53,301 nucleotides of DNA from Alphaproteobacteria bacterium (lineage in GTDB: Bacteria > Pseudomonadota > Alphaproteobacteria > JALCBB01): contig JALCBB010000001.1 in assembly GCA_028066985.1 (NCBI GenBank), forward strand, positions 1 through 53,301, in the 5' to 3' direction. Positions within the stretch are counted from its first letter, which is position 1, and every line of letters starts with the position of its first letter. A model generated the notes under the pieces. The model was not told the origin of the DNA, did no database searches, and was given only the letters and a program-made list of their open reading frames with translations. Shown piece by piece: positions 990-47,615 of the stretch. Both the position numbers and the translations under genes were made by a program.

Positions 990-1472
990 GTGCAATCGCT
1001 CTTCCTCGGTACATTCGAGAACCGAATCGACTCCAAAGGTCGCGTGCTCGTGCCCGCCGCCTTCAGGCAGCCCCTCAGTCAGGACGGGCAGCCCGGACTC
1101 GTCTGCTATCCCGATATCAATCAGACCGCGCTCGAAGGCGTCAGTCTGCGCACGCTCAACGACTCCTTCAACGCGCTGCGCGAGCAGTACGAAATGTATT
1201 CGCCCGAATACGAAGCCGTGATGTCCATTCTCAGCGGCGCCGCAAACCTCTCGTGGGACAGCGGCGGACGCGTTCAACTCCCGGAACGGCTCCTCAAAAA
1301 AGCCGGCATCCGCAGCGATGTCGTTTTCGTCGGACTCGGCGACAGGTTCCGTATCTGGGATCCGAACCTCTACCAGAAGCACCTCGGTGTTGTCGCGAAG
1401 ATCACGGAGAAGGGCAACATCACCATCTCGCTCGCTTCCGCGCGGAGAGACGGTCAGGGTAAATCGGAATGA
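990..1472 (+). CDS. mraZ: Transcriptional regulator MraZ
   Basis: 160-aa ORF with N-terminus MQSLFLGTFENRIDSKGRVLVPAAFR typical of MraZ; first gene of the dcw cluster. Confidence 0.9.
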   Translation: MQSLFLGTFENRIDSKGRVLVPAAFRQPLSQDGQPGLVCYPDINQTALEGVSLRTLNDSFNALREQYEMYSPEYEAVMSILSGAANLSWDSGGRVQLPERLLKKAGIRSDVVFVGLGDRFRIWDPNLYQKHLGVVAKITEKGNITISLASARRDGQGKSE

Positions 1473-1816
1473 CGACACCGCCCGCCTCCTCTGTCGTCAC
1501 AGACGCGACCCGCGACAACGGACACCTGCGCGGTCGTCCGTCACTGTCATTGTTAAAGGTCAATGGCGCCTCGCCCACTAATGCCACAGGCCACGCCACG
1601 GGGGACACCTTTCATGGTCGTCCGTCACCGTCATTGTCCTTTAACAATTTTAATTTTTTGTCGGCAGCGCCGACAGGCATCAGTGGGTGCGGCTCGCTTG
1701 AGCCGACACCGTTAACAGTCAATGACACCTCGCCCACTAATGCCAAGGGACGTGCCACGGGGGACGCCTTTCATGGTCGTCCGTCATCGGCGCTCAAAAG
1801 CGGGGCGAAACAATGA
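1469..1816 (+). other. Repeat-derived bridging ORF (115 codons); coding status doubtful
   Basis: ATG 1469 overlaps the mraZ stop (ATGA) and the stop overlaps the rsmH ATG 1813 (ATGA). Nearly the whole ORF is translated repeat DNA (GDTFHGRPSPSLSFNNFNFLSAAPTGISGCGSLEPT). Confidence 0.25.
1519..1790 (+). repeat. Repeat array: X hairpin, distal half-arm, X hairpin, full arm (1640-1744), X hairpin
   Basis: X = GGACACCTTTCATGGTCGTCCGTCACCGTCATTGTCC-like units at 1519-1554, 1600-1639 and 1759-1790. Arm hairpin GTCGGCAGCGCCGAC at 1660-1674; CCCACTAATGCC at 1574-1585 and 1733-1744. Confidence 0.85.
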
Positions 1817-3142: not shown

Positions 3143-5416
3143 ATGCCGAACACGCCTTCGCCGTCTCCCGACTTTCTGCTCGGACGCGACCTCCTCTCGC
3201 ACACCGGCGCGATGCGGCGGCTGCACCGTCACCGCTCGTGCCAGAACTCCGGCGCCGACCCGATGGAGCGCAGAAATCTCAGAATCCTCGTCTGCCTCGT
3301 GCTCGTCTGCTGCGGCTTCGCGACCATCATCTTCAGACTCGGCGCCGTCATGGCTCCGTGGGACAACGACAGCGCGAAACTGCCGCACCCCATCCGCGCA
3401 ATCGCCGACGCCGCCGAAAAACCCGTCATCACCGACAGGCACGGCGAAATCCTCGCAATGGATCTGCCCGCGTATTCGCCGTACGCGCGTCCGAAGGAAA
3501 TGCGGAACCCGCGCCGCGCCGCGCGACTGCTCGCGTCGGCGATTGAGGACGCCAGTCCCGTTGAACTCGCCGCCGCGTTCCAGAACGCCGCCGACAACGA
3601 CGAGCCGTTCGTCTGGGTCGCGCGGTATATTTCGCCCCGCGAGGCGCGCGCCGTGATGAAGCGCGGCGTCGTCGGCGTGGAAATGATGGCGACGAAACGG
3701 CGCAGTCATCCGCTCGGAAGTCTCGCGTCGCATGTCACCGGCTTCACCGACATTGACGGCCGCGGCCTCGCCGGAATGGAACGGCTCGCGTCGGCGCGCG
3801 CGGAAGAGGGCAGGGGATCGGGTGAGGAGATCGCGCCTGTCGCGCTGTCGCTGGATCTGCGCGTTCAGCATGCGCTGGAGGAAGAACTTCACGCCACGAT
3901 GACGAAATTCCAGGGCAAGGGCGCCGCCGGCGTCGTGATGGACGCGAACAGCGGCGAAATTCTCGCTATCGCTTCGCTGCCGAATTTTCATCCCGACCGG
4001 CGCGAGATGCTTAACGAGGAAAATCGTTTTAATCGCGCCACGCTCGGCGTCTACGAGTTCGGCTCCGTTCTCAAGCCGCTCACCTACGCGACCGTGATGG
4101 AGGCGACGCCGCGCGGCGAGTGGAGCGCGCTCTTCGCTTCGCGTTATTCAACTTCGCCGATGCGGATTCCGGGATACACGATCACGGATTATCGTCCGAA
4201 ACATGCGAATGTGAAATTCGCGGAGGGGATGATTCATTCGTCCAATGTGACGACGGCGAAGGTGATGCGCCGCATCGGCGCGCCGTCGCTCAGGGACGGC
4301 TTCCACAGACTCGGCATGGCCGAAATCGCGCCGCTGGAACTCGGCGAGCGCGGACTGCCGCAGATGCCCGCGAAGTGGGGGCCGACTGAATCGGTCACGG
4401 CGTCTTACGGGCACGGGATCGCGGTGTCGCCTGTGCATATTGTTCGCGCCTTCGCGGCGGTCGTGAACGGCGGAGTGCTGCCGTCGCCGACATTGCTTAA
4501 GGGCGGCGCGGCGCCGGGCGCGCGGGTGCTGTCGGCGGAGACTTCGGCGGTGATGCGGCGTTTGTTGCGGCTCGTCGTGCTTGAGGGAACGGGGCGCAAG
4601 GCGGACGCGGACGGGTATCTTGTCGGCGGCAAGACGGGGACTGCCAATCAGGTTTCGCCGAGCGGCGGCTATGACGACAATCTTCGCATCGCGTCTTTTG
4701 TCGCGGCGTTTCCGATGGATGCGCCGCGGTATGTGACTTTTATGATGGTGGAGAATCCGGTGCCGAGCGAGGACAGTTTCGGTTTCGCGACGGGCGGCTG
4801 GGTCGCGGCGAGCGCGACGCGTCTGCTTGTGGCGCGGATCGCGCCGTTGCTTGGCGTGCTGCCGCGTGACAGCGAGGAGTTTGACACGGGCGCCCTTAAT
4901 TTTCTGAACACACCCGATGTTAACGCGGCACCCTTTGTCGTCGTCAACAATGAAACAACGGATTACAGCCCCGGCATCTTGTCTGTCGTCCACAACACCA
5001 TTGACAGCAATGACATTGACAATGAAGCGACCGACTACAAACCCGGCGCCTTGTCTGTCGTCCACAATAAAACAACGGACAACGAAACGGACACCTTGCA
5101 TGGTCGTCCGTCACCGTCGTTGTCTCTTAATAATTTTAATTTTTTGCGGGCAGCGCCCGCGGGCATCAGTGGGCGCGGTTCGCTTGAGCCAACAGCGCGC
5201 CAGTCCGAAAATCCTCTCCCACTAATGCCGAAGGCCGTCCAGGAGGATGCGATAACCGCCGACGCCTCGCCCGTCAATGAGTCCATTGACGCCATTGACG
5301 CGATCATCGCCGACACTTTAAGCGTCCAGCCCGTTGATGAAACCGTCATCCCCGCCGCCGATGAAACGCCCGCGGACATCACCTCGCTCATTCAACTCGT
5401 CCTCAGCGGAACCTGA
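3143..5416 (+). CDS. ftsI: Peptidoglycan D,D-transpeptidase FtsI (PBP3) with a repeat-containing C-terminal extension
   Basis: SxxK (GSVLKP), SxN (HSSNV) and KTG (GGKTGTA) motifs. Start uncertain (internal Met at MERRNLRILV possible). The last ~170 codons include a repeat insertion. Confidence 0.9.
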   Translation: MPNTPSPSPDFLLGRDLLSHTGAMRRLHRHRSCQNSGADPMERRNLRILVCLVLVCCGFATIIFRLGAVMAPWDNDSAKLPHPIRAIADAAEKPVITDRHGEILAMDLPAYSPYARPKEMRNPRRAARLLASAIEDASPVELAAAFQNAADNDEPFVWVARYISPREARAVMKRGVVGVEMMATKRRSHPLGSLASHVTGFTDIDGRGLAGMERLASARAEEGRGSGEEIAPVALSLDLRVQHALEEELHATMTKFQGKGAAGVVMDANSGEILAIASLPNFHPDRREMLNEENRFNRATLGVYEFGSVLKPLTYATVMEATPRGEWSALFASRYSTSPMRIPGYTITDYRPKHANVKFAEGMIHSSNVTTAKVMRRIGAPSLRDGFHRLGMAEIAPLELGERGLPQMPAKWGPTESVTASYGHGIAVSPVHIVRAFAAVVNGGVLPSPTLLKGGAAPGARVLSAETSAVMRRLLRLVVLEGTGRKADADGYLVGGKTGTANQVSPSGGYDDNLRIASFVAAFPMDAPRYVTFMMVENPVPSEDSFGFATGGWVAASATRLLVARIAPLLGVLPRDSEEFDTGALNFLNTPDVNAAPFVVVNNETTDYSPGILSVVHNTIDSNDIDNEATDYKPGALSVVHNKTTDNETDTLHGRPSPSLSLNNFNFLRAAPAGISGRGSLEPTARQSENPLPLMPKAVQEDAITADASPVNESIDAIDAIIADTLSVQPVDETVIPAADETPADITSLIQLVLSGT
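4925..5235 (+). repeat. Repeat element inserted in frame in the ftsI 3' region
   Basis: CCTTTGTCGTC leader; two copies of a ~69-bp direct repeat (CTTGTCTGTCGTCCACAA at 4978-4995 and 5050-5067); X hairpin 5087-5126; AT run; arm hairpin GCGGGCAGCGCCCGC 5146-5160; CCCACTAATGCC 5218-5229. Same layout as 12096-12412. Confidence 0.85.
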
Positions 5417-10969: not shown

Positions 10970-12090
10970 TGCCGCACCGACTCATTCCGAAACGCGACAA
11001 CAGCGTCTTCTCGCAGTGGTGGTGGAGCGCCGACCTGCCCGTGCTTGCCGCGCTCGCCGCGCTCATCTTCTTCGGGATGCTCCTCTCGTTCAGCGCGACC
11101 CAGCCGCTCGCCGCCAGTCTCGGACAGCAGCACTACGCCCGCGCGATGCCGCATATGGCGTATGCGCTGGTCGCGCTCGCGCTGCTTGTCGCGGTGTCGT
11201 TTCTCAATGCTGACGCGGTTCGGCGCGCGGCGATTATCGCGTGCGCGGCGTGTGTCGTGCTGCTGGTCGCGACGCTTGTGATCGGCACCGAGATCAAGGG
11301 CGCGCGGCGGTGGCTTAATGTGTTCGGGTTTTCGGTGCAGCCGAGCGAGTTTGCGAAGCCGGCTTTCGCGGTCGCGGCGGCGTGGCTGCTGACGGCGGCG
11401 GGCGGGAGGTTTCGGCATCCGGCGTCGCTGGCGGCGTTCGGGCTTTGCGCGCTGCTTTGCGGCTTGCTGCTGCTTCAGCCGGACATCGGGCAGACGGTGA
11501 TTGTCATTTTTATTTTCGGCGCCGAATTTTTTGTCGCCGGGTTTTCGCCTTTTCTTGTGGCGGCGCTGGCTTTGCTTGGCGCGCTGATTTTGCTCGGCGC
11601 GTATCATCTTTTTCCGCATGTGGCGGAGCGGATTAATATTTTTCTGGACCCGGCGTCCGGCGACACTTATCAGGTGGAGCGTTCGCTTGAGGCGTTCGGC
11701 GCCGGCGGGTGGCGCGGTGTCGGGCTGCTGGACGGGCAGATCAAGCAGAAACTTCCGGACCGGCAGTCTGATTTTATTTTCGCTGTTATCGGCGAGGAGA
11801 TGGGTTTCGTTTTCGCGCTGCTTGTGGTTCTGACATTTATGTTTATCGCGGTGCGGGTGCTGTTGAAACTTTCGCGCGAGCCGCGGGCGTTCGCGGCTGT
11901 CGCGGGTGTGGGGCTGCTTACGCAGTTTATCGCGCAGACTTTTGTCAATGTCGGTTCAAGTTTGCAGATGATTCCGACGAAGGGGATGACGCTGCCGTTT
12001 TTGAGTCATGGCGGGTCTTCTTTGCTGGCGATGGGGCTTGGAATGGGCGCGCTCCTGGCACTCCTCAGAAGTCCACATATAACACGATGA
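10969..12090 (+). CDS. ftsW: Peptidoglycan glycosyltransferase FtsW (SEDS family)
   Basis: Refined start ATG 10969 (TGATG overlap with the murD stop). QPSEFAKP, PDRQSDFIF and GMTLPFLSHGGSS motifs. Confidence 0.93.
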   Translation: MPHRLIPKRDNSVFSQWWWSADLPVLAALAALIFFGMLLSFSATQPLAASLGQQHYARAMPHMAYALVALALLVAVSFLNADAVRRAAIIACAACVVLLVATLVIGTEIKGARRWLNVFGFSVQPSEFAKPAFAVAAAWLLTAAGGRFRHPASLAAFGLCALLCGLLLLQPDIGQTVIVIFIFGAEFFVAGFSPFLVAALALLGALILLGAYHLFPHVAERINIFLDPASGDTYQVERSLEAFGAGGWRGVGLLDGQIKQKLPDRQSDFIFAVIGEEMGFVFALLVVLTFMFIAVRVLLKLSREPRAFAAVAGVGLLTQFIAQTFVNVGSSLQMIPTKGMTLPFLSHGGSSLLAMGLGMGALLALLRSPHITR

Positions 12091-12416
12091 CAAACGACTC
12101 TCACACCGCCTTTGTCGTCAATGACACAGATGACACTTTGTCTGTCGTCAACCATGCTTTGACGACCGCGACAACTGCCCCCGCCTCTTTGTCTGTCGTC
12201 AATGCACACAATGACAACGACAATGACAATGGACACCTGCATTGTCGTCCATCACTGTCATTGTCCTTTTTTATTTTTTTGCAGGCAGCGCCTGCGGGCA
12301 TCAGCGGGTGCGGCTCGCTTGAGCCAACACCTTTGCCAGTCCAAGTCGCTCGCTCACTAATGCCAGAGGCGGTGCTTCGGGGGGGCGACTTGCATGGTCG
12401 TCCATTCACATCATGA
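12087..12416 (+). other. Repeat-derived bridging ORF (109 codons); coding status doubtful
   Basis: ATG 12087 overlaps the ftsW stop (ATGA) and the stop overlaps the murG ATG 12413 (ATGA). The arm is read in the same frame as in ftsI (FFIFLQAAPAGISGCGSLEPT). Confidence 0.25.
12096..12412 (+). repeat. Repeat element between ftsW and murG, flanked by the direct repeat ATGACAAA
   Basis: CCTTTGTCGTC leader, CTTTGTCTGTCGTCAA twice, X hairpin 12229-12266, T run, arm hairpin GCAGGCAGCGCCTGC 12281-12295, CTCACTAATGCC 12353-12364, terminal AGAGGCGGTGCTTCG, second X 12382-12410. ATGACAAA at 12087-12094 and 12413-12420. Confidence 0.85.
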
Positions 12417-16010: not shown

Positions 16011-17229
16011 GTCGCGGCGCGCGCTCGTGCTGTACGGCGGCGTTTCGCCGGAGCGCGAGGTGTCGCTTGTGTCGGGACGCGAGTGCGCCGCCGCGCTGAA
16101 GCGGCTCGGCTGGGAGGTCGCGTTGTATGACTGGCGCGGCGACGGCGATGACTTTCGCGCGCGCGCGGCGGGGGCGCGGTTTGTGTTTAACGCGCTGCAT
16201 GGCGGCGACGGCGAGAACGGCGATCTGGCGCGGCGGTTTGAAGATGTGCTGTTCACACATTCGCCGCCTGGGGCGTCGGCGCTGGCGATGGACAAGGTGC
16301 AGACGCGCGAGTTCGCGGTGAGCATTGGTTTGAGTGTGCCGCCCGGCGAGATTGCGACTTGCGCGGAGGTGCGGTCTGGTTTTGAGCCGTTTGCGCGTCC
16401 GTTTGTGGTGAAGCCGATCGCGGGGGGGTCAAGTATTGGTGTTTGCATTGTCGGCGGCGGGGGTGATGTGTCGGCGATGGAGTGTGGTGATGATGATGAT
16501 TTGCTTGTGGAGGTGTTTATTCCCGGGCGTGAGTTGACGGTTTCGGTTTTGGATGGTCGTGCGCTGGCGGTGACGGAGTTGCGGTCGCGGACGGCGTTTT
16601 ATGATTATGAGGCGAAGTATTCTTCGGGTGTGACGGAGCATCTTGTGCCGGCGCCGGTGCCGGAGGGTGTGTATCGCGCGGCGATGGAGGCGGCGGAGCG
16701 GATGCATGAGGTTTTGGGTTGTCGGGGTGTGTCGCGGAGTGATTTTCGCTGGGATGAGGGTGGTGTGGTTGATGGTGTGGTGTTGTATTTGCTGGAGGTG
16801 AATACGCAGCCTGGGATGACGCCGACGAGTCTGGTGCCGGAGCAGGCTTTGTTTTGCGGGATGGATTTTGACGCGCTTGTTGCGCGGATTGTTGATTCTG
16901 CCTTGTCCGCCAATTCGTCAAACAGCGACACAATGAAGGCGCCCCTTAAAAAGTCCAATGATGCGGACACATCAGGCGCGCCCGTTTCATTGTCTTCTCC
17001 TTCATCGTCCGTCACCGCTCCTGTTAAGGAGTGCGATGGGGACAATAAAGGGGGGCGAGTTTCATTGTCCTCTCTTTCATTGTCTGACAATTCGCTTGTT
17101 AAAAAGTCCGATATGGACAATAAAAGGGCGCGTTGTTCGTCGTCCTCTTCATTGTCTGTCAATTCGCCCGTTAAAAAGTCCAACGGGGACGCTTTAAGTG
17201 CGCCTTTTTCTGTCGGAGTTGCGTCGTGA
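16003..17229 (+). CDS. ddl: D-alanine--D-alanine ligase with a repeat-encoded C-terminal tail
   Basis: Refined start GTG 16003, overlapping the murB stop. LVLYGGVSPEREVSL and the ATP-grasp motif EVNTQPGMT. The canonical domain ends near ARIVDSAL (about 16905); about 100 further codons are tandem repeats. Confidence 0.9.
   Translation: MAESRRALVLYGGVSPEREVSLVSGRECAAALKRLGWEVALYDWRGDGDDFRARAAGARFVFNALHGGDGENGDLARRFEDVLFTHSPPGASALAMDKVQTREFAVSIGLSVPPGEIATCAEVRSGFEPFARPFVVKPIAGGSSIGVCIVGGGGDVSAMECGDDDDLLVEVFIPGRELTVSVLDGRALAVTELRSRTAFYDYEAKYSSGVTEHLVPAPVPEGVYRAAMEAAERMHEVLGCRGVSRSDFRWDEGGVVDGVVLYLLEVNTQPGMTPTSLVPEQALFCGMDFDALVARIVDSALSANSSNSDTMKAPLKKSNDADTSGAPVSLSSPSSSVTAPVKECDGDNKGGRVSLSSLSLSDNSLVKKSDMDNKRARCSSSSSLSVNSPVKKSNGDALSAPFSVGVAS
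16944..17200 (+). repeat. About 75-bp tandem repeat, roughly 3.4 copies, inside the ddl 3' end
   Basis: Units start near 16944, 17022, 17097 and 17170. Each carries GTTAAAAAGTCC...GGACAATAAA...TTTCATTGTCC with GGACAAT/ATTGTCC inverted repeats. A period of 25 codons keeps the frame. Confidence 0.8.
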
Positions 17230-27259: not shown

Positions 27260-27597
27260 AGGGACAAGCGAAGTGCGACCTTTGGCATTAGTGGGCGTTT
27301 GACTAAGACATTCACGATGTCGGCTCAAGCGAAAACACGCCAACTAATGGGTGCGGGCTAGCCCGCAAAAAAATAAATAATAATTTATTGACTATTTAAG
27401 GGGTCAATTAAATAAATTGCTTTCTTATTAATTGACAAATAATGGAATGGTTATTGTCTATTAAATTAATTCTTTTAATTTTATTTTTTTGCAGGCAGCG
27501 CCTGCGGGCATCAGCGGGTATCGCTCGCTTGAGCCGACATCGTGACTAGTCTTAGTCACACGCCCACTAATGCCAAGGATCAGTCTTCGGAGTCGTC
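27260..27597. mobile_element. Composite mosaic palindromic element (MITE-like), between convergent icd and the RND permease
   Basis: Left arm: AGGGACAAGCGAAG, GGCATTAGTGGG 27284-27295, GACTAAGACATTCACGATG, GCTCAAGCGA, hairpin GCGGGCTAGCCCGC 27353-27366. AT core 27367-27490. Right arm: hairpin GCAGGCAGCGCCTGC 27491-27505, GCTTGAGCC, CCCACTAATGCC 27563-27574. Confidence 0.7.
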
Positions 27598-30500
27598 GTC
27601 TTCACGACGGGCGCCGAAAAGACGGGAAAGTAAGGAGCGGCGGGGGCGGGACTCCTCCGATGTCGGCGGGTCGTCTGAGCCAGCCCAACTGAACTCTCCG
27701 CCAGACACAGACACCGATACAGCCTCAGCCGCAACTCCAGCCAAAACACCGCGAGAAGTCGCCTCCAAAACAGCCAGCCGGCGTCCCTCCTTCTTGCTCC
27801 GACGGCGGCGGGCGCGCTCCTCCATGCGTCCCTTGTAAACCAAAGCCGACGGCGTCACCAGCAAAGTCAAAGGCGTCGCGAAGAACAAGCCGAACACAAT
27901 CACCGTGGATAACTGCACCCACCACAACGCGCTCGGCGAATTGTAGGTCACCGTCCGCTCAATGAAGTCAAAGTTCAACTTCAGCACCAGCGGCATCAAA
28001 CCCAGAATCGTCGTGCAAGCCGTCAGCAACACAGGACGCATGCGCTGCGCCCCCGTTCGCAAAATTGCCTCCGTCACATCCAGACCCGAACGCCGCAAAC
28101 CCTCATAGGTGTCAATCAACACAATGTTGTTGTTCACAATAATCCCCGCCAGCGCAATCACACCAATCCCGCACATCACAATCCCGAACGGCTGCCCCGT
28201 TATCAGCAGTCCAAGCATCACACCCGTCGTCGACATGATCACCGCCGACAATATCAATAACGCCGAGAAAAACGAGTTGAACTGCGTCACCAGAATCACA
28301 GCCATCAACGCCATCGCCACCATGAAGGCGCGCACCAGAAACGCCTGCGCCTCCATCTCCTCCACATTCTCGCCCACAAACTCATAACGAACACTCGGAT
28401 CCAGGTCCGCCTCGGCAAGCAAAGCCTCAAGTTCCGCCTGCTTCGCCGACACCAGAAATTCACGACCCGTCGCCGGATCTATGCCGACATTCGCCTCCAC
28501 CGTCACCACACGGCGCTGATCCACACGGCTGAAGACCGTGTCCGCGGGCTTCGTCTCCAGATCCACAAACGACGAAATCGGCACCAGGCCGCTGCGCGTC
28601 TGAATCCGCAACTGCTGCAACTGCGAAGTGTTGCGATAGTCAAGCGGCACGCGCGCGATGATGTCCACCTCCTCGGTCGTGTGATCCGGACGGTAACTCG
28701 CCAGTTTCAAACCGCCCGTGAACATCTCCACATAGTTCCCCACCAGCGACAAATTCGCGCCGAAACGCTCGGCCGCCGTCCGATCGACGATGAGTTCAAC
28801 ACCGAGTTCGGGCGGAGGCAGCGAGTCCTCAATGTCAACCACGCCGCCGGCGCTCTCCATCAGCGCGCGCACCCGCGCCGCCGTCGCCGGCAGAATCTCG
28901 GGCGAATTAGAAGTCAGACGCACCACAAGCGGCTTGCCCTCGCCGCCGGGACCCTCTTCGTCGGCCTGCGGCTCAATGACAATCCCCGCGAGATGCAGGG
29001 TGCGCTCGCGTATCTCTTCCAGAATCACCGTCGCCGGACGGCGCAGGTTGCTGTCCACGAGTTCAATCGTGATGTTGCCGATGATGTCGCTGTCGCTCTG
29101 TCCGGACACCTGACTCACCGTATACACCGACCCCATCTCGCCGTTCTCAATCGCGAGTTTCAGAATTTCAGCCTCGGCTTCGCGCACGAGATGATCGCGC
29201 TCCACCGCCGAAAAATTGCCCTGCGCGCGCACATGAATCACCGCCTGATCCGGCTCGGTCGCCGGGAAAAACTCCGTGCCCTGTCCGGAACGGCTGTAGG
29301 CGAAGAACGAACCCACCAGCACCGCCGCCGCCGCCAGCACCACAAGCGACGGAAAGCGTATCAGTCGCCGCAAAAGACGAATATACGCGCCCGTGAAGCC
29401 CTTCACCGCGTTCAGGTCGCCGCCGCGAGCGATCGCGCGCGCCGTCTTCACGCTCTCGTCCGTGCGCGCCTTGCCGAAAATGGAGCCTATCGTCGGCAGG
29501 AAAATTAGCGCCATGAACAGCGCCGCCGTAAGCACGATGATCTGCGTTATCGGCAGGAACTTCATAAACTCGCCCACCGTGCCGGGCCAGAACGCCAGCG
29601 GCAGAAACGCGCACAGGGTCGTCGCCGTGGACGAGGTGATCGGCCAGAACATTCGGTGCGACGCCTCGCGGAACGCCTCCTCGGCGGTCTTGCCCTCGGA
29701 CATCTTGCGGTCGGCGAACTCGGTCATCACGATGGAGCCGTCAACGAGGAGTCCGACCGACAAAATCAGCGCGAAGAGAACCACGATGTTAAGCGTGAAG
29801 CCGATGCTGCTGATCACCATGAACGCCACGAGCAGCGACGCCGGAATCGCGAAGCCGACCAGCAGCGCCGTGCGGAGTCCGATGGTGGCGATGAGAACAG
29901 TGACCACGAGCAGAATAGATGTCACGACCGAATTGCCGAGGTCGCTGATGATGCGGCGGATGTCGACGGACTCGTCGCCGCTGAAGGCGTAGGTCACGCC
30001 GGGGGGCCACTTTTTGCTCTCCTCTTCAACGACGATCTTCGCCTGGTCGATGGTTTCAATGATGTTCGTGCCGATGCGCTTCGTGATCTCAACGGAGACG
30101 CTGTTCTGTCCGTTGACGCGGACGAAGGAGTCCGGCTCGCGGAAGGTCGGGCGCACGATGGCGATGTCGCCGACGGTGACTTCTCTGTCGCCGTTGACGC
30201 GCAGGGGCAGGTCGATGATTTCTTCGTAGGAGCGGTAGAGACCCGGCACGCGGACGGCGAAGCGTCCGGCGCCTGTATCCAGGGTGCCGGCGGTGATGAC
30301 CTGGTTGTTGCTTGCGACCGCGGCGAGGACGGTGTCGGCTTCAAGTCCGTAGGACTCGAGTTTGACGGGGTCAATGATGACTTCGACCTGTTCGGGCAGG
30401 GTGCCGAAGACATCCGCGGTCAGGACGTTGGTGAGCGACTCCAGCGAGTCGGAGAGGTCTACCGCGACCTGGCGGATCACGCGTTCGGGCAGGCTGCTGG

Positions 30501-30933
30501 ACAGCGTGACGGTGATGATCGGAAACAGCGAGAGGTTGACTTCGCTGACGGTGGGTTCGTCGGCGTCGGCGGGGAGGTCGACGGCGACTTCGTCGCTGGC
30601 GACGCGGACGTCGTCCAGGGCGGTGTCAATGCTGTATCCGGCGGCGAATTCCAGTTGAACGAAGCCGCCGCCGGAGTATGCGGCGGAGGTCATTTCAATG
30701 ACGCCTTCCACGGCGCGCATTTTATTTTCCATGGGGCGGACGAGGAGTCGTTCGGAGTCTTCGGGCGAGATGCCGCGCTGGCTCATGCTGATGTAGAGGA
30801 TGGGGATCTGGACGTCGGGCTCGGACTCTCTGGGGATGGAGAGCATGGAGAGGTATCCGGAGATGAGGAAGATGAAGAGCAGCCCGAGGGTGGAGCGCTT
30901 GCGGAGGAGGGCGGCGTCAATGAGGTGGCTCAT
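27580..30933 (-). CDS. Efflux RND transporter permease subunit (AcrB/HAE1-like)
   Basis: 1117 aa, 12-TM RND architecture with two large periplasmic loops. The low-complexity C-terminal tail has its last codons and stop inside the element end. Confidence 0.95.
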   Translation of the reverse strand: MSHLIDAALLRKRSTLGLLFIFLISGYLSMLSIPRESEPDVQIPILYISMSQRGISPEDSERLLVRPMENKMRAVEGVIEMTSAAYSGGGFVQLEFAAGYSIDTALDDVRVASDEVAVDLPADADEPTVSEVNLSLFPIITVTLSSSLPERVIRQVAVDLSDSLESLTNVLTADVFGTLPEQVEVIIDPVKLESYGLEADTVLAAVASNNQVITAGTLDTGAGRFAVRVPGLYRSYEEIIDLPLRVNGDREVTVGDIAIVRPTFREPDSFVRVNGQNSVSVEITKRIGTNIIETIDQAKIVVEEESKKWPPGVTYAFSGDESVDIRRIISDLGNSVVTSILLVVTVLIATIGLRTALLVGFAIPASLLVAFMVISSIGFTLNIVVLFALILSVGLLVDGSIVMTEFADRKMSEGKTAEEAFREASHRMFWPITSSTATTLCAFLPLAFWPGTVGEFMKFLPITQIIVLTAALFMALIFLPTIGSIFGKARTDESVKTARAIARGGDLNAVKGFTGAYIRLLRRLIRFPSLVVLAAAAVLVGSFFAYSRSGQGTEFFPATEPDQAVIHVRAQGNFSAVERDHLVREAEAEILKLAIENGEMGSVYTVSQVSGQSDSDIIGNITIELVDSNLRRPATVILEEIRERTLHLAGIVIEPQADEEGPGGEGKPLVVRLTSNSPEILPATAARVRALMESAGGVVDIEDSLPPPELGVELIVDRTAAERFGANLSLVGNYVEMFTGGLKLASYRPDHTTEEVDIIARVPLDYRNTSQLQQLRIQTRSGLVPISSFVDLETKPADTVFSRVDQRRVVTVEANVGIDPATGREFLVSAKQAELEALLAEADLDPSVRYEFVGENVEEMEAQAFLVRAFMVAMALMAVILVTQFNSFFSALLILSAVIMSTTGVMLGLLITGQPFGIVMCGIGVIALAGIIVNNNIVLIDTYEGLRRSGLDVTEAILRTGAQRMRPVLLTACTTILGLMPLVLKLNFDFIERTVTYNSPSALWWVQLSTVIVFGLFFATPLTLLVTPSALVYKGRMEERARRRRSKKEGRRLAVLEATSRGVLAGVAAEAVSVSVSGGEFSWAGSDDPPTSEESRPRRSLLSRLFGARREDDDSED

Positions 30934-30951
30934 GGCGCGACCTTTCCGAGT

Positions 30952-31228
30952 CCGGTGGGAGCAGCCCCTGGCATTAGCGGGCGAGGAATCCAGGCTTGCC
31001 GTGACGGCCGCTCAAGCGAGCGACGCCCGCTGATGCCCGCGGGCGCTGCCCGCAAAAAATTAAATTTTAATGGACAGACGATGAATGGACGAACCGTCGG
31101 GCGGCTGTCTGTCCATTTATTTTTTTTGTCGGCAGCGCCGACAGGCGACAGTGGGTGCGGCTCGCTTGAGCCGACGCCGTTAACAGTCAATGACACCCCG
31201 CCCACTAATGCCAAGGGCGGTGCCATGG
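30952..31228. mobile_element. Composite palindromic element with a variant core, intercistronic in the RND operon
   Basis: GGCATTAGCGGG 30970-30981, CCCGCTGATGCC 31026-31037, hairpin GCGGGCGCTGCCCGC 31039-31053. The core holds a 9-bp stem TGGACAGAC 31071-31079 / GTCTGTCCA 31107-31115. Second hairpin GTCGGCAGCGCCGAC 31128-31142; CCCACTAATGCC 31201-31212. Confidence 0.7.
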
Positions 31229-31272
31229 AAAGTCCAAAGGCGGCACTGACGAATGACAGAAACTTGCCCATA

Positions 31273-32394
31273 TCAGCCGCCGTCCACAACCGCGTCAACC
31301 TCCTCCTGCGTCACCACCTTCACCAACTGACCATCCTGTATCCACGACTGACCCACCGTCACCACACGCAACTCCCCAGGCATACCGCTCACCCACGCGC
31401 CCCCCGCATCCTGATCCACAATCTCAATAGAATGAAACCGCGCAGTGTCACTGTCATCCACCCCGTACACGCCCAGCACGCCGGAGTCGTTCAACACAAT
31501 GATCCCCGGCGAAATCCGATGCAACGCGCGCGGCTCCTGACGCAACAACACCCGCGCCGTCGCCCCCGCAGGATACACACCATCCGGATTCGCAGCCTCC
31601 GCCTCTATCCGAAATGTCCGCGTCGCCGGATCCGCAATCCGCGAAATGAAACTCACCTCGCCCGTCACCACACCGCCGAAAACAAGTTCCGCCTCCACCC
31701 GATCACCAAGCCGCACCTGCCCGAGTTCATCCTCGCTGACAGAGAAGGTCAATTTCAACGGGTCAAGGTCAAGCAGCCGCGCAACCTCGCTGCCCGGCGA
31801 AACATAGTCGCCCACCTCAACCAGCACATCCTCCAGCACCGCGCCGAACGGAGCGTCAATCACCAGCCGCCGCAACTCCAAAGTCGCGCGCTCCAACTGC
31901 GCGCGCGCGCTCGCCAATGTCGCCGTCGCCGCGTTCAACTGCATCTCCGAACGCAAACCCTCGTCGTACAGACGCCGCGTCGCCTTGAAATCACTCTCGG
32001 CCTGATCCAACTGCGCGCGCGCGTCCGCCAGTGTCGCCGGACGATCCTGCTCGGTGAGCCGAAGCAAAGCCGTCCCGCCGGCGACAGCGTCGCCCGCCTC
32101 AACAAGTATCTCCTCAACGCGTCCGCTGATCTCGCTCTGCAGACGAAGGTCGCGGCGCGCCTCGGTGCGTCCGGCAACCTCAAGCACGCCGACATGCGGA
32201 CGCGCCGTCAGCGTCTCAACACGCACCTCAAGGGCGGTGACCTCGGCGTCCTGAATGACGACAGGGGCGACCTGCGGCGTGACAGGCTGTCCCTGCCGCG
32301 CGACGGTGCCGGAGTATATCCAGAGTCCCGCAGCGGCAATCACCGCAACCGCTATCGTGCGCGGACTCTTCACAAACGCCACTAGAAATCTCAC
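31273..32394 (-). CDS. Efflux RND transporter periplasmic adaptor subunit (MFP/HlyD family)
   Basis: 373 aa with an N-terminal anchor, coiled-coil hairpin and beta-barrel regions; immediately upstream of the RND permease on the same strand. Confidence 0.9.
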   Translation of the reverse strand: MRFLVAFVKSPRTIAVAVIAAAGLWIYSGTVARQGQPVTPQVAPVVIQDAEVTALEVRVETLTARPHVGVLEVAGRTEARRDLRLQSEISGRVEEILVEAGDAVAGGTALLRLTEQDRPATLADARAQLDQAESDFKATRRLYDEGLRSEMQLNAATATLASARAQLERATLELRRLVIDAPFGAVLEDVLVEVGDYVSPGSEVARLLDLDPLKLTFSVSEDELGQVRLGDRVEAELVFGGVVTGEVSFISRIADPATRTFRIEAEAANPDGVYPAGATARVLLRQEPRALHRISPGIIVLNDSGVLGVYGVDDSDTARFHSIEIVDQDAGGAWVSGMPGELRVVTVGQSWIQDGQLVKVVTQEEVDAVVDGG

Positions 32395-40463: not shown

Positions 40464-40794
40464 GGGACAACGAAGCACGGCCTCTGGCATTAGTGGGAGA
40501 TTGACCAAGACATTCACAATAGTCGCTCAAGCGAGCGATGCCAGCAGATGGGTGCGGGCTAGCCCGCAAAAAAAATTAAAAATTAATTTTGACTATTAAT
40601 GGGGTCAATTAAATAAATTGTCTTTTCATTAATAGACAATTAATGGTGTCTATTAAATAAATTAATTTCTTTTTAATTTTATTTTTTTGCAGGCAGCGCC
40701 TGCGGGCATTAGTGGGCGCGGTTCGCTTGAGCGGCTGTTGTGAATGTCTTGGTCAAACTCCCACTAATGCCAAAGATCGCACTTCGTTTGTCTC
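40464..40794. mobile_element. Composite mosaic palindromic element (inverted relative to 36510-36840), between the prs start and the GNAT stop
   Basis: GGGACAACGAAG end, GGCATTAGTGGG 40486-40497, hairpin GCGGGCTAGCCCGC 40554-40567, AT core 40568-40688, hairpin GCAGGCAGCGCCTGC 40689-40703, CCCACTAATGCC 40760-40771, end CACTTCGTTTGTCTC. Confidence 0.75.
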
Positions 40795-43767: not shown

Positions 43768-43778
43768 GGTTTGTATTC

Positions 43779-43810
43779 GGGGCGGGACTGGTGTTCCGCC
43801 CCGTTTCCCT
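43779..43810 (+). terminator. Possible attenuating terminator after aapJ
   Basis: Stem GGGGCGGGA (43779-43787) / TCCGCCCC (43795-43802), followed by GTTTCCCTTT (weak T tract). Confidence 0.4.
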
Positions 43811-43816
43811 TTCGGA

Positions 43817-44034
43817 ACAGCCGCCCTTTGTCGTCTTAAAGGGGACAATCACCGTCGGCTGTTTCATTAAGTTGAGTTATCGGGACAATCGCCGTTGATT
43901 GTCCTGTTAAATGAGACAGCCGCCCTTTGTCGTCTTATTAAAGGGGACAATCACCGTTTAAAGGGGACAATCACCGTCGGCTGTTTCATTAAGTCAAGTT
44001 ATCGGGACAATTGCCGTTGATTGTCTCAATTAAA
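43817..44034 (+). repeat. Tandem duplication (99 + about 119 bp) of a hairpin-rich GGGACAAT unit between aapJ and aapQ
   Basis: Copies start at ACAGCCGCCCTTTGTCGTCTT (43817 and 43916). Each has ACAGCCG/CGGCTGT and GGACAATYGCCGTTGATTGTC hairpins. Copy 2 carries an extra AAAGGGGACAATCACCGT. Confidence 0.8.
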
Positions 44035-44108
44035 AAGACGGCGACATCTGTCACCGTCACCCGTAGTCAGTCATTCAGGCGCGCCGCCGCGCGAGGAGGA
44101 AATCCAGA

Positions 44109-47325: not shown

Positions 47326-47615
47326 GGGGACAAACGAAGCACGGCCTCTGGCATTAGTGGGAGTTTGACCTAGACAGTCACGATGTTGGCTCAAGCGAAA
47401 CACACCAACTAATGGGTGCGGGCTAGCCCGCAAAAAATAAATAATAATTTATTGACTATTTAAGGGGTCAATTAAATAAATTAATTTCTTTTTAATTTAA
47501 TTTTTTTTGCAGGCAGCGCCTGCGGGCATCAGTGGGCGCTGTTTGCTTGAGCCAACGCTTTAAGAGTCTAAATTTCACGCCCACTAATGCCAAATGCCGC
47601 ACTTTGTCTGTCTCC
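47326..47615. mobile_element. Composite mosaic palindromic element (core lacking the middle module), between aapP and alaX
   Basis: GGGGACAAACGAAG end, GGCATTAGTGGG 47350-47361, hairpin GCGGGCTAGCCCGC 47418-47431, core 47432-47508, hairpin GCAGGCAGCGCCTGC 47509-47523, CCCACTAATGCC 47580-47591, end CACTTTGTCTGTCTCC. Confidence 0.75.

Follow-up and report, generated by a model that had tools for sequence, protein, structure and literature searches.

The question raised here is why a stretch of inserted repeat DNA, lying between two genes of a bacterial operon, should be open to translation in precisely the frame that connects them. The locus is the junction of mraZ and rsmH in the dcw cell-division cluster, with which a 53,301-nucleotide (nt) stretch of DNA opens (contig JALCBB010000001.1 of GenBank assembly GCA_028066985.1; hereafter the window). 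The DNA belongs to 'Candidatus Luteria ianthellae' (order JABSOH01; Engelberts et al. 2022, PMC10947273), which among the alphaproteobacterial symbionts of the sponge Ianthella basta is the dominant one. An earlier note, made from the letters of the window alone, proposed that translation, or at least ribosome transit and coupling, is preserved through the insert. Recurrence of the arrangement at other junctions, a contrast with copies of the repeat at operon boundaries, changes within the repeat arms and variation among strains all support this proposal. Coupling-preserving ribosome transit is the best-supported explanation of the pattern, and translation of the spacer is what its anatomy would predict.

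The junction consists of the following parts.

990-1472, + strand: mraZ (NCBIfam MraZ equivalogs and Pfam PF02381), its TGA stop at 1470-1472 lying inside the ATGA at 1469-1472
1469-1816, + strand: bridge open reading frame (ORF) 1, 115 amino acids (aa), ATG start and TGA stop, made wholly of repeat modules and overlapping each neighbouring gene by 4 nt
1520-1539, + strand: small hairpin, variant copy GGACACCTGCGCGGTCGTCC, of direct-repeat family D2/D3
1546-1599, + strand: distal half arm (nhmmer match to model positions 57-108)
1603-1623, + strand: small hairpin GGACACCTTTCATGGTCGTCC (motif scan)
1649-1759, + strand: full arm of the 'open' type (nhmmer E = 9e-27; core spacing 41 nt)
1660-1674, + strand: hairpin of the full arm (arm alignment)
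1694-1703, + strand: core TCGCTTGAGC of the full arm (arm alignment)
1711-1726, + strand: stop-free box GTTAACAGTCAATGAC of the full arm, where intergenic arms carry the stop-containing GTGAATGTCTTAGTC
1733-1744, + strand: core CCCACTAATGCC of the full arm (arm alignment)
1762-1782, + strand: small hairpin GGACGCCTTTCATGGTCGTCC, part of the 79-nt direct repeat 1552-1630 / 1711-1789
1783-1812, + strand: variable tail before the rsmH start, with a G-run (GCGGGG, 1800-1805) that is a possible weak Shine-Dalgarno site
1813-2790, + strand: rsmH (TIGR00006, E = 3e-74, profile positions 6-309 against residues 9-310), its ATG at 1813-1815 lying inside the ATGA at 1813-1816

One ATGA therefore holds both the mraZ stop and the start of the bridge, and the other both the rsmH start and the stop of the bridge. 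Because the RsmH profile alignment begins at residue 9, we take the ATG at 1813 to be the true rsmH start. The untranslated gap is 340 nt and the spacing from ATGA to ATGA 344 nt; the bridge frame contains no internal stop, and the other sense frames contain 3 and 6. The earlier note had described just such a bridging frame, filled by hairpins, a half arm and a full arm in which the usual stop-containing box is replaced. Each of these elements was recovered, the modules being mapped across the whole 340 nt. The three small hairpins are of the type GGACNCCT..GGTCGTCC, and the two members of the 79-nt direct repeat are spaced 159 nt apart (3 x 53, divisible by three). A promoter and terminator scan of the insert found no promoter-like site and no sense-strand terminator; at the arm hairpin the T-run precedes the hairpin and does not follow it.

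Comparison with relatives, which the earlier note had suggested, indicates how the junction once looked. In two relatives with 62% and 58% RsmH identity, mraZ and rsmH are separated by a 17-nt gap or joined by a GTGA overlap, and no arms occur in 9-11 kb of their sequence. We therefore take the insert to be specific to this lineage and the ancestral junction to have been tight. A scan of GTDB genomes with RsmH found no relative. Tight packing is general in this cluster. All junctions from mraZ to murB measure -4 to +6 nt once bridges are counted, and native junctions with an ATGA-type 4-nt overlap include rsmH/ftsL, murE/murF and murG/murC. The insertion site was probably a gene junction that formerly abutted directly or overlapped.

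Open and closed copies of the repeat

The same arrangement is met at two further junctions of the window and on another contig, and a repeat arm is also found within a protein-coding gene.

12087-12416, + strand: bridge ORF 2, between ftsW and murG, 109 aa, with ATGA at 12087-12090 and 12413-12416 at its ends
30930-31271, - strand: bridge ORF 3, between an RND adaptor gene and an AcrB-family pump gene (both assigned by Pfam), 113 aa from the ATG at 31271 or 122 aa from a TTG at 31298
4001-4324 of locus L035 (contig JALCBA010000059.1, same metagenome-assembled genome, MAG): fourth bridge, 107 aa, with ATGA on the start of an ABC permease gene
5089-5239, + strand: small hairpin and arm (arm 5135-5239) inside the C-terminal tail of FtsI (translation; nhmmer; core spacing 40 nt)

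All three window bridges have the layout of termination and reinitiation, with a stop overlapping or abutting a start. At bridge 3 the upstream junction reads TGAtATG, the start lying one base past the adaptor stop, and the downstream junction is an ATGA on the pump start. The fourth bridge starts 37 nt past the stop of a binding-protein gene, beyond a small hairpin; a DarT/Macro-domain gene pair is also present at that locus. The arm of bridge 2 (12270-12379) is read in the same frame as that of bridge 1, giving a product containing ...AAPAGISGCGSLEPTP..., with a core spacing of 40 nt and no stops. Bridge 3 crosses an inverted arm pair, reading 31117-31224 antisense and 30959-31064 sense. Within ftsI (3143-5416) the arm is again read in the frame of the bridges, an in-frame residence inside a gene; FtsI is 757 aa with a long C-terminal tail, compared with 693-698 aa in the 62%-identity relative.

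These translated copies can be set against the rest of the family. An nhmmer arm model gave about 27 matches in the window, 22 of them full arms of about 105-110 nt. Most arms form inverted pairs about an AT-rich centre and lie between convergent, divergent or functionally unrelated genes (27268-27589, 40470-40788 and 47333-47607 are examples), a geometry that differs from the half arm plus full arm in direct orientation at mraZ-rsmH. Every one of the nine repeat clusters at operon boundaries has at least three stops in each of the six frames; the three operon-internal inserts of the window have none in the coupling frame. Base composition differs as well, with a GC content of 0.54-0.60 in operon-internal inserts versus 0.41-0.46 in boundary clusters. 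In a motif scan, the GGACACCTTTCATGGTCGTCC hairpin module had only translated copies (1603, 1762, 5089, 12383), and none was found in boundary clusters.

The distinction extends to the internal structure of the arm. In 16 of 17 untranslated arms, the distance separating the invariant cores GCTTGAGC and CTAATGCC is exactly 39 nt, a spacing that places the core TAA in the arm frame together with the TGA and/or TAG of the box. All five arms in translated DNA have a spacing of 40 or 41 nt, which moves the core TAA out of frame; they have also lost the stop box and contain no stops. The association of spacing with translation has a hypergeometric P of 2.3e-4 for all five arms, and of 0.002 once the antisense-read arm is excluded. 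At least four different stop-free boxes occur among the open arms. The strictness of the 39-nt spacing in closed arms hints at a constraint of their own, for example an all-frame translation stop or a binding site for protein or RNA.

Several features indicate that the repeats are structured. In the first arm hairpin there are compensatory changes, with GC, AU and CG at one pair, and RNA folding of the three spacers gave z-scores of -4.1, -5.8 and -9.1 against shuffled controls. The start codons of murG and acrB fall inside predicted stems. No Rfam family matched the repeats, a tRNA being the sole match, and a scan of GTDB genomes with the repeat-core DNA pattern gave, among the matches listed, only single chance-level matches in unrelated genomes. 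We regard the repeat as a modular, nested-hairpin family of the REP/MITE-like kind (MITE, miniature inverted-repeat transposable element), so far found only in 'Ca. Luteria ianthellae'. No transposase gene turned up in the window or the compared loci.

Other repeat-bearing sites were noted in the window. The D-Ala-D-Ala ligase has a C-terminal tail of about 110 aa past its Pfam domain (16984-17229), made of 2.7 copies of an in-frame tandem repeat of 72-75 nt. Its TGA overlaps the GTG start of ftsQ (GTGA, 17226-17229), another route by which inserted repeats are kept translated. Between the genes for an ABC binding protein and permease, the gap 43768-44108 is occupied by a tandem repeat of another small hairpin (units like GGGGACAATCACCGTCGGCTGTTTCATTAAG), with no frame left open. 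A terminator-like hairpin comes after the first of the two genes, and a strong GAGGAGG site precedes the permease start. This unbridged gap fits a model of coupling, because with its own terminator-like hairpin and strong GAGGAGG site it would not need to be coupled.

Strain variants and the encoded peptide

Strain contigs from I. basta metagenomes (including PRJEB9378, SRR1809083x), together with a closed 2.27-Mb contig (ENA ERZ21781341, ctg64743c), reveal how the inserts change. Close, co-occurring strains share about 98% DNA identity in mraZ and about 95% in rsmH, and among them the mraZ-rsmH insert falls into length classes of 306, 330, 348 and 375 nt, with six distinct sequences, several of which turned up in independent assemblies. 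The 348-nt form is that of the closed contig, and the 306-nt form is present in several independent assemblies. In all six sequences the frame between the two ATGAs is unbroken, the other two frames holding 3-8 stops, and ORF lengths span 101-124 aa. None of the strains examined yielded an empty-site allele.

The indels responsible for these classes preserve phase. One, of 75 nt, is the proximal half of the first arm; it is retained in strain contig L012, and the half arm at 1546-1599 is for that reason an in-frame deletion derivative. Others are of 6 nt and 18 nt. A 1-nt indel in an arm box is compensated by a 23-nt difference in the tail, so that 52 aligned nt are in different frames in different strains. 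The tail before rsmH is 54, 36 or 13 nt long, depending on the strain, with phase always restored. At the adaptor/pump junction, a variant (L036, 2501-3034) has an extra arm that adds 174 nt; its coupling frame is nevertheless unbroken and phase is kept, and 9-13 stops fall in the other frames. All five net length changes are divisible by three, which has a probability of about 0.004 if lengths are unconstrained, the region upstream of mraZ holding too few events to serve as a neutral control of indel lengths. Boundary copies vary too. Most strains have a solo arm beside tRNA-Ser (189-290), but L012 lacks it and L007 has other sequence in its place. Copies at boundaries are therefore also polymorphic for presence or absence.

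What is preserved through these changes does not appear to be the peptide. Searched against 5.8 billion proteins, the 115-aa product found no homologue but itself, and NCBIfam and Pfam gave nothing credible. A profile of the peptide matched only repeat-derived ORFs of alphaproteobacterial MAGs from I. basta. The mraZ-rsmH insert diverges by about 10% between strains, compared with about 2% in mraZ; its substitutions are spread evenly over codon positions, with 14 non-synonymous to 2 synonymous changes between the window and L006. The composition of bridge ORF 1 is flat over the three codon positions (GC1/2/3 of 0.53/0.63/0.61), and bridges have third-position values of 0.55-0.61 against 0.76-0.81 in real genes, unlike the signature of a conventional gene. 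Given a neutral substitution pattern, flat GC and no homologue beyond repeat-derived ORFs, we consider that the bridge peptide is not under selection and that openness and phase are.

The alternative is that bridges are real genes with functional small proteins, such as a division-related or secreted peptide. Arguing for this, bridge ORF 1 is annotated as a gene in the NCBI MAG, and the ftsW-murG bridge is more conserved than its surroundings, with a single, synonymous difference in 330 nt between strains where the flanking genes diverge by 1.4-2.0%. The near-invariance of this bridge is the opposite of the highly polymorphic state at mraZ-rsmH. Counter to a functional protein are the homologues confined to repeat-derived ORFs of the same symbiont lineage, the excess of non-synonymous changes, the length that varies from strain to strain, the 52-nt stretch read in two frames and the fact that the same DNA is untranslated elsewhere in the window. 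We consider this alternative quite improbable. Tryptic peptides predicted for the bridge ORFs include, as examples, ATGDAFHGRPSSALK and VNGASPTNATGHATGDTFHGRPSPSLSFNNFNFLSAAPTGISGCGSLEPTPLTVNDTSPTNAK. The portion covered of an I. basta metaproteome table (Table S3 of Engelberts et al. 2022) contained no repeat peptide, an absence that, for so limited a portion, is uninformative.

What may keep the frame open

We think it probable, on balance, that selection keeps, or lets survive, those inserts in which one frame begins at an AUG that shares bases with the upstream stop and ends at a UGA that does so with the downstream start. Ribosomes ending mraZ would reinitiate at the overlapping AUG and read through the spacer as a disposable cistron, unwinding its strong hairpins as they pass. 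Termination would then occur over the rsmH AUG, where they would reinitiate. If the spacer is translated in this way, the operon mRNA has no long untranslated, structured stretch. The likely benefit would be retained translational coupling; protection from premature termination (polarity), from attack by RNase or from a blocked start site could also contribute, and the bridge peptide would have no function of its own. Both the passage of ribosomes and the choice among these benefits we infer from the anatomy of the junctions and from the known behaviour of AUGA and UGAUG overlaps.

Several observations weigh against this explanation. In a simulation of the kind that the earlier note had named as a check, 17% of dinucleotide-preserving shuffles of the mraZ-rsmH insert stay open with the ends fixed (12-17% insert by insert over the bridges). 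The A that follows the start codon in 16 of 34 window genes puts NTGA at about half of them, and a TGA overlapping the downstream start is therefore common. The rsmH AUG is unpaired in the predicted fold, and rsmH might initiate independently, given a G-rich Shine-Dalgarno-like stretch 8-12 nt upstream of it in all variants. Those variants all come from metagenome assemblies of repeat-rich DNA. Finally, the open arms may be one propagating subfamily, copies 1647-1760 and 31115-31228 being 91% identical, in which case openness would be partly inherited. Even with the required phase, which contributes a further factor of 1/3, the mraZ-rsmH locus by itself is only suggestive (roughly 0.01-0.06, depending on what is taken as given) and is not convincingly beyond chance.

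The shuffles and the frequency of A after start codons would be accommodated if the bridge were a coincidence, long open frames being common in GC-rich DNA with many ATGA starts. A spurious 909-aa open frame at 29656-32385 (+), opposite real minus-strand genes, illustrates how easily long ORFs arise in GC-rich, skewed DNA and calls for caution in arguments from a single ORF. Coincidence would, however, have to be repeated. Openness and correct phase are seen in all three operon-internal inserts and also in the fourth, which lies on another contig, and none of the nine boundary clusters is open in any of six frames. Net indels are divisible by three in all five structural variants, a 1-nt frameshift is offset by a 23-nt indel, and openness goes with core spacing. 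For the pattern as a whole we judge chance to be highly improbable. The simulation thus weakens the argument from the single locus; the case against chance at mraZ-rsmH is made by recurrence, by the contrast with intergenic copies and by the strain variants.

The most serious rival, which overlaps the coupling explanation rather than excluding it, places the cause in the element. A 'translatable' repeat subfamily, intrinsically open, built of modules that are multiples of three and ending in ATGA-containing strings (CAATGAC), could be spreading in the manner of the RPE discussed below, its openness inherited with each copy. Consistent with this, the open arms share the small hairpin module, GC-richer centres and the 40-41-nt spacing, all absent from boundary arms, and two of them have the close identity noted above. 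The centre peptide KKNKWTD..RP.IVC.LKFNFL occurs in bridge 3, in the fourth bridge and in other called ORFs, FtsI uses the same frame, and CAATGAC-like strings are frequent within modules. Each insertion must still land in phase at both ends, however, and the compensated frameshift and variable tails at one locus are left unexplained. The four or more stop-free boxes suggest repeated opening events. The strings shared by the two ends of an insert are 5 nt at mraZ/rsmH (the ATGAC that the earlier note had seen at both junctions, and which is indeed there), 8 nt at ftsW/murG (ATGACAAA) and none at adaptor/pump, unlike the product of a single transposition mechanism. The ATGAC could be a target-site duplication, for which the earlier note saw weak evidence in it. 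We regard this rival as unlikely, though it is the alternative to which we give most weight.

More speculatively, the family could have a dedicated 'coupling-neutral' form: a mobile spacer, open in either orientation and with stop/start-overlap ends, that colonises coupled junctions without polar damage. We are doubtful of this form. If it exists, bridge cistrons would be general and countable, perhaps numbering dozens in the 2.27 Mb, and the host might use bridge length and hairpin strength to set the expression ratios of operon partners.

Returning to coupling preserved by selection, the bridges would amount to a natural experiment in which structured junk DNA inside operons is tolerated only in the form of phase-exact translatable spacers. 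The outcome would indicate how strong selection is for continuous translation and stop/start coupling in bacterial operons. The pattern suggests that selection for unbroken translation along operons is strong.

Comparison with known repeats and coupled cistrons

Among known repeats, the Rickettsia palindromic elements (RPE; Ogata et al. 2000, as summarised in PMC10969869 and PMC3184786) are presented in those summaries as in-frame fusions within genes. In both cases the genome of an alphaproteobacterial symbiont contains scattered palindromic repeats, about 100-150 bp long, that reside in frame inside translated DNA, and the peptide is tolerated rather than functional. The differences are that the repeats described here make up cistrons of their own, reaching exactly from one gene to the next with stop/start overlaps, that closed boundary copies are clearly split from open operon-internal ones, and that the host is a GC-rich sponge symbiont and not Rickettsia; the two families are likened by description only. 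Stand-alone bridge cistrons would constitute a third fate of small repeats, beside 'intergenic' and 'in-frame fusion', and would account for one class of the hypothetical small proteins found in symbiont genomes rich in repeats.

The element Chunjie is summarised as non-coding and A+T-rich, with 21-bp terminal inverted repeats and 9-bp direct repeats (PMC3184786). Like the bridges, it is a structured small repeat tolerated between operon genes (according to the summaries in PMC10969869 and PMC3184786); unlike them, it has no phase-exact ORF or stop/start overlap reported in those summaries. More generally, the same two summaries report repeats inserted in frame, gene ends lengthened by repeat ORFs and a MITE tolerated inside an operon, the examples being RPE, BRE, ERIC, BOX and Chunjie. 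We met with no account, in the literature searched, of repeat DNA that forms a cistron of its own, fits exactly between two operon genes and remains in phase as its structure changes, and the literature that mentions 'Ca. Luteria ianthellae' does not discuss these repeats.

With the REP/BIME, ERIC, BOX and Correia repeats the family shares a modular, hairpin-forming build, a mostly intergenic position and clustering at the ends of transcription units. Those repeats affect mRNA stability, RNase III processing, promoters or terminators. To our knowledge, no role as translated, coupling-preserving spacers is known for them. Some of their copies carry ORFs or extend gene ends, according to the summary in PMC3184786. 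REP/BIME palindromes are imperfect, 20-40 nt long, often located at gene 3' ends and strictly extragenic, which the repeats of 'Ca. Luteria ianthellae' are not: their units are about 110 nt, nested, and in several cases in translated DNA. A trait shared with REP/BIME is that boundary clusters lie at gene 3' ends.

The remaining comparison is with coupled cistrons themselves. Overlapping stop and start codons (AUGA, UGAUG) mediate translational coupling in bacterial operons, as at the junctions of the Escherichia coli trp operon. The bridge at mraZ-rsmH has the same 4-nt overlap at both of its ends. It differs in that the middle cistron is inserted repeat DNA, of which the only conserved property is that it is open and in phase.

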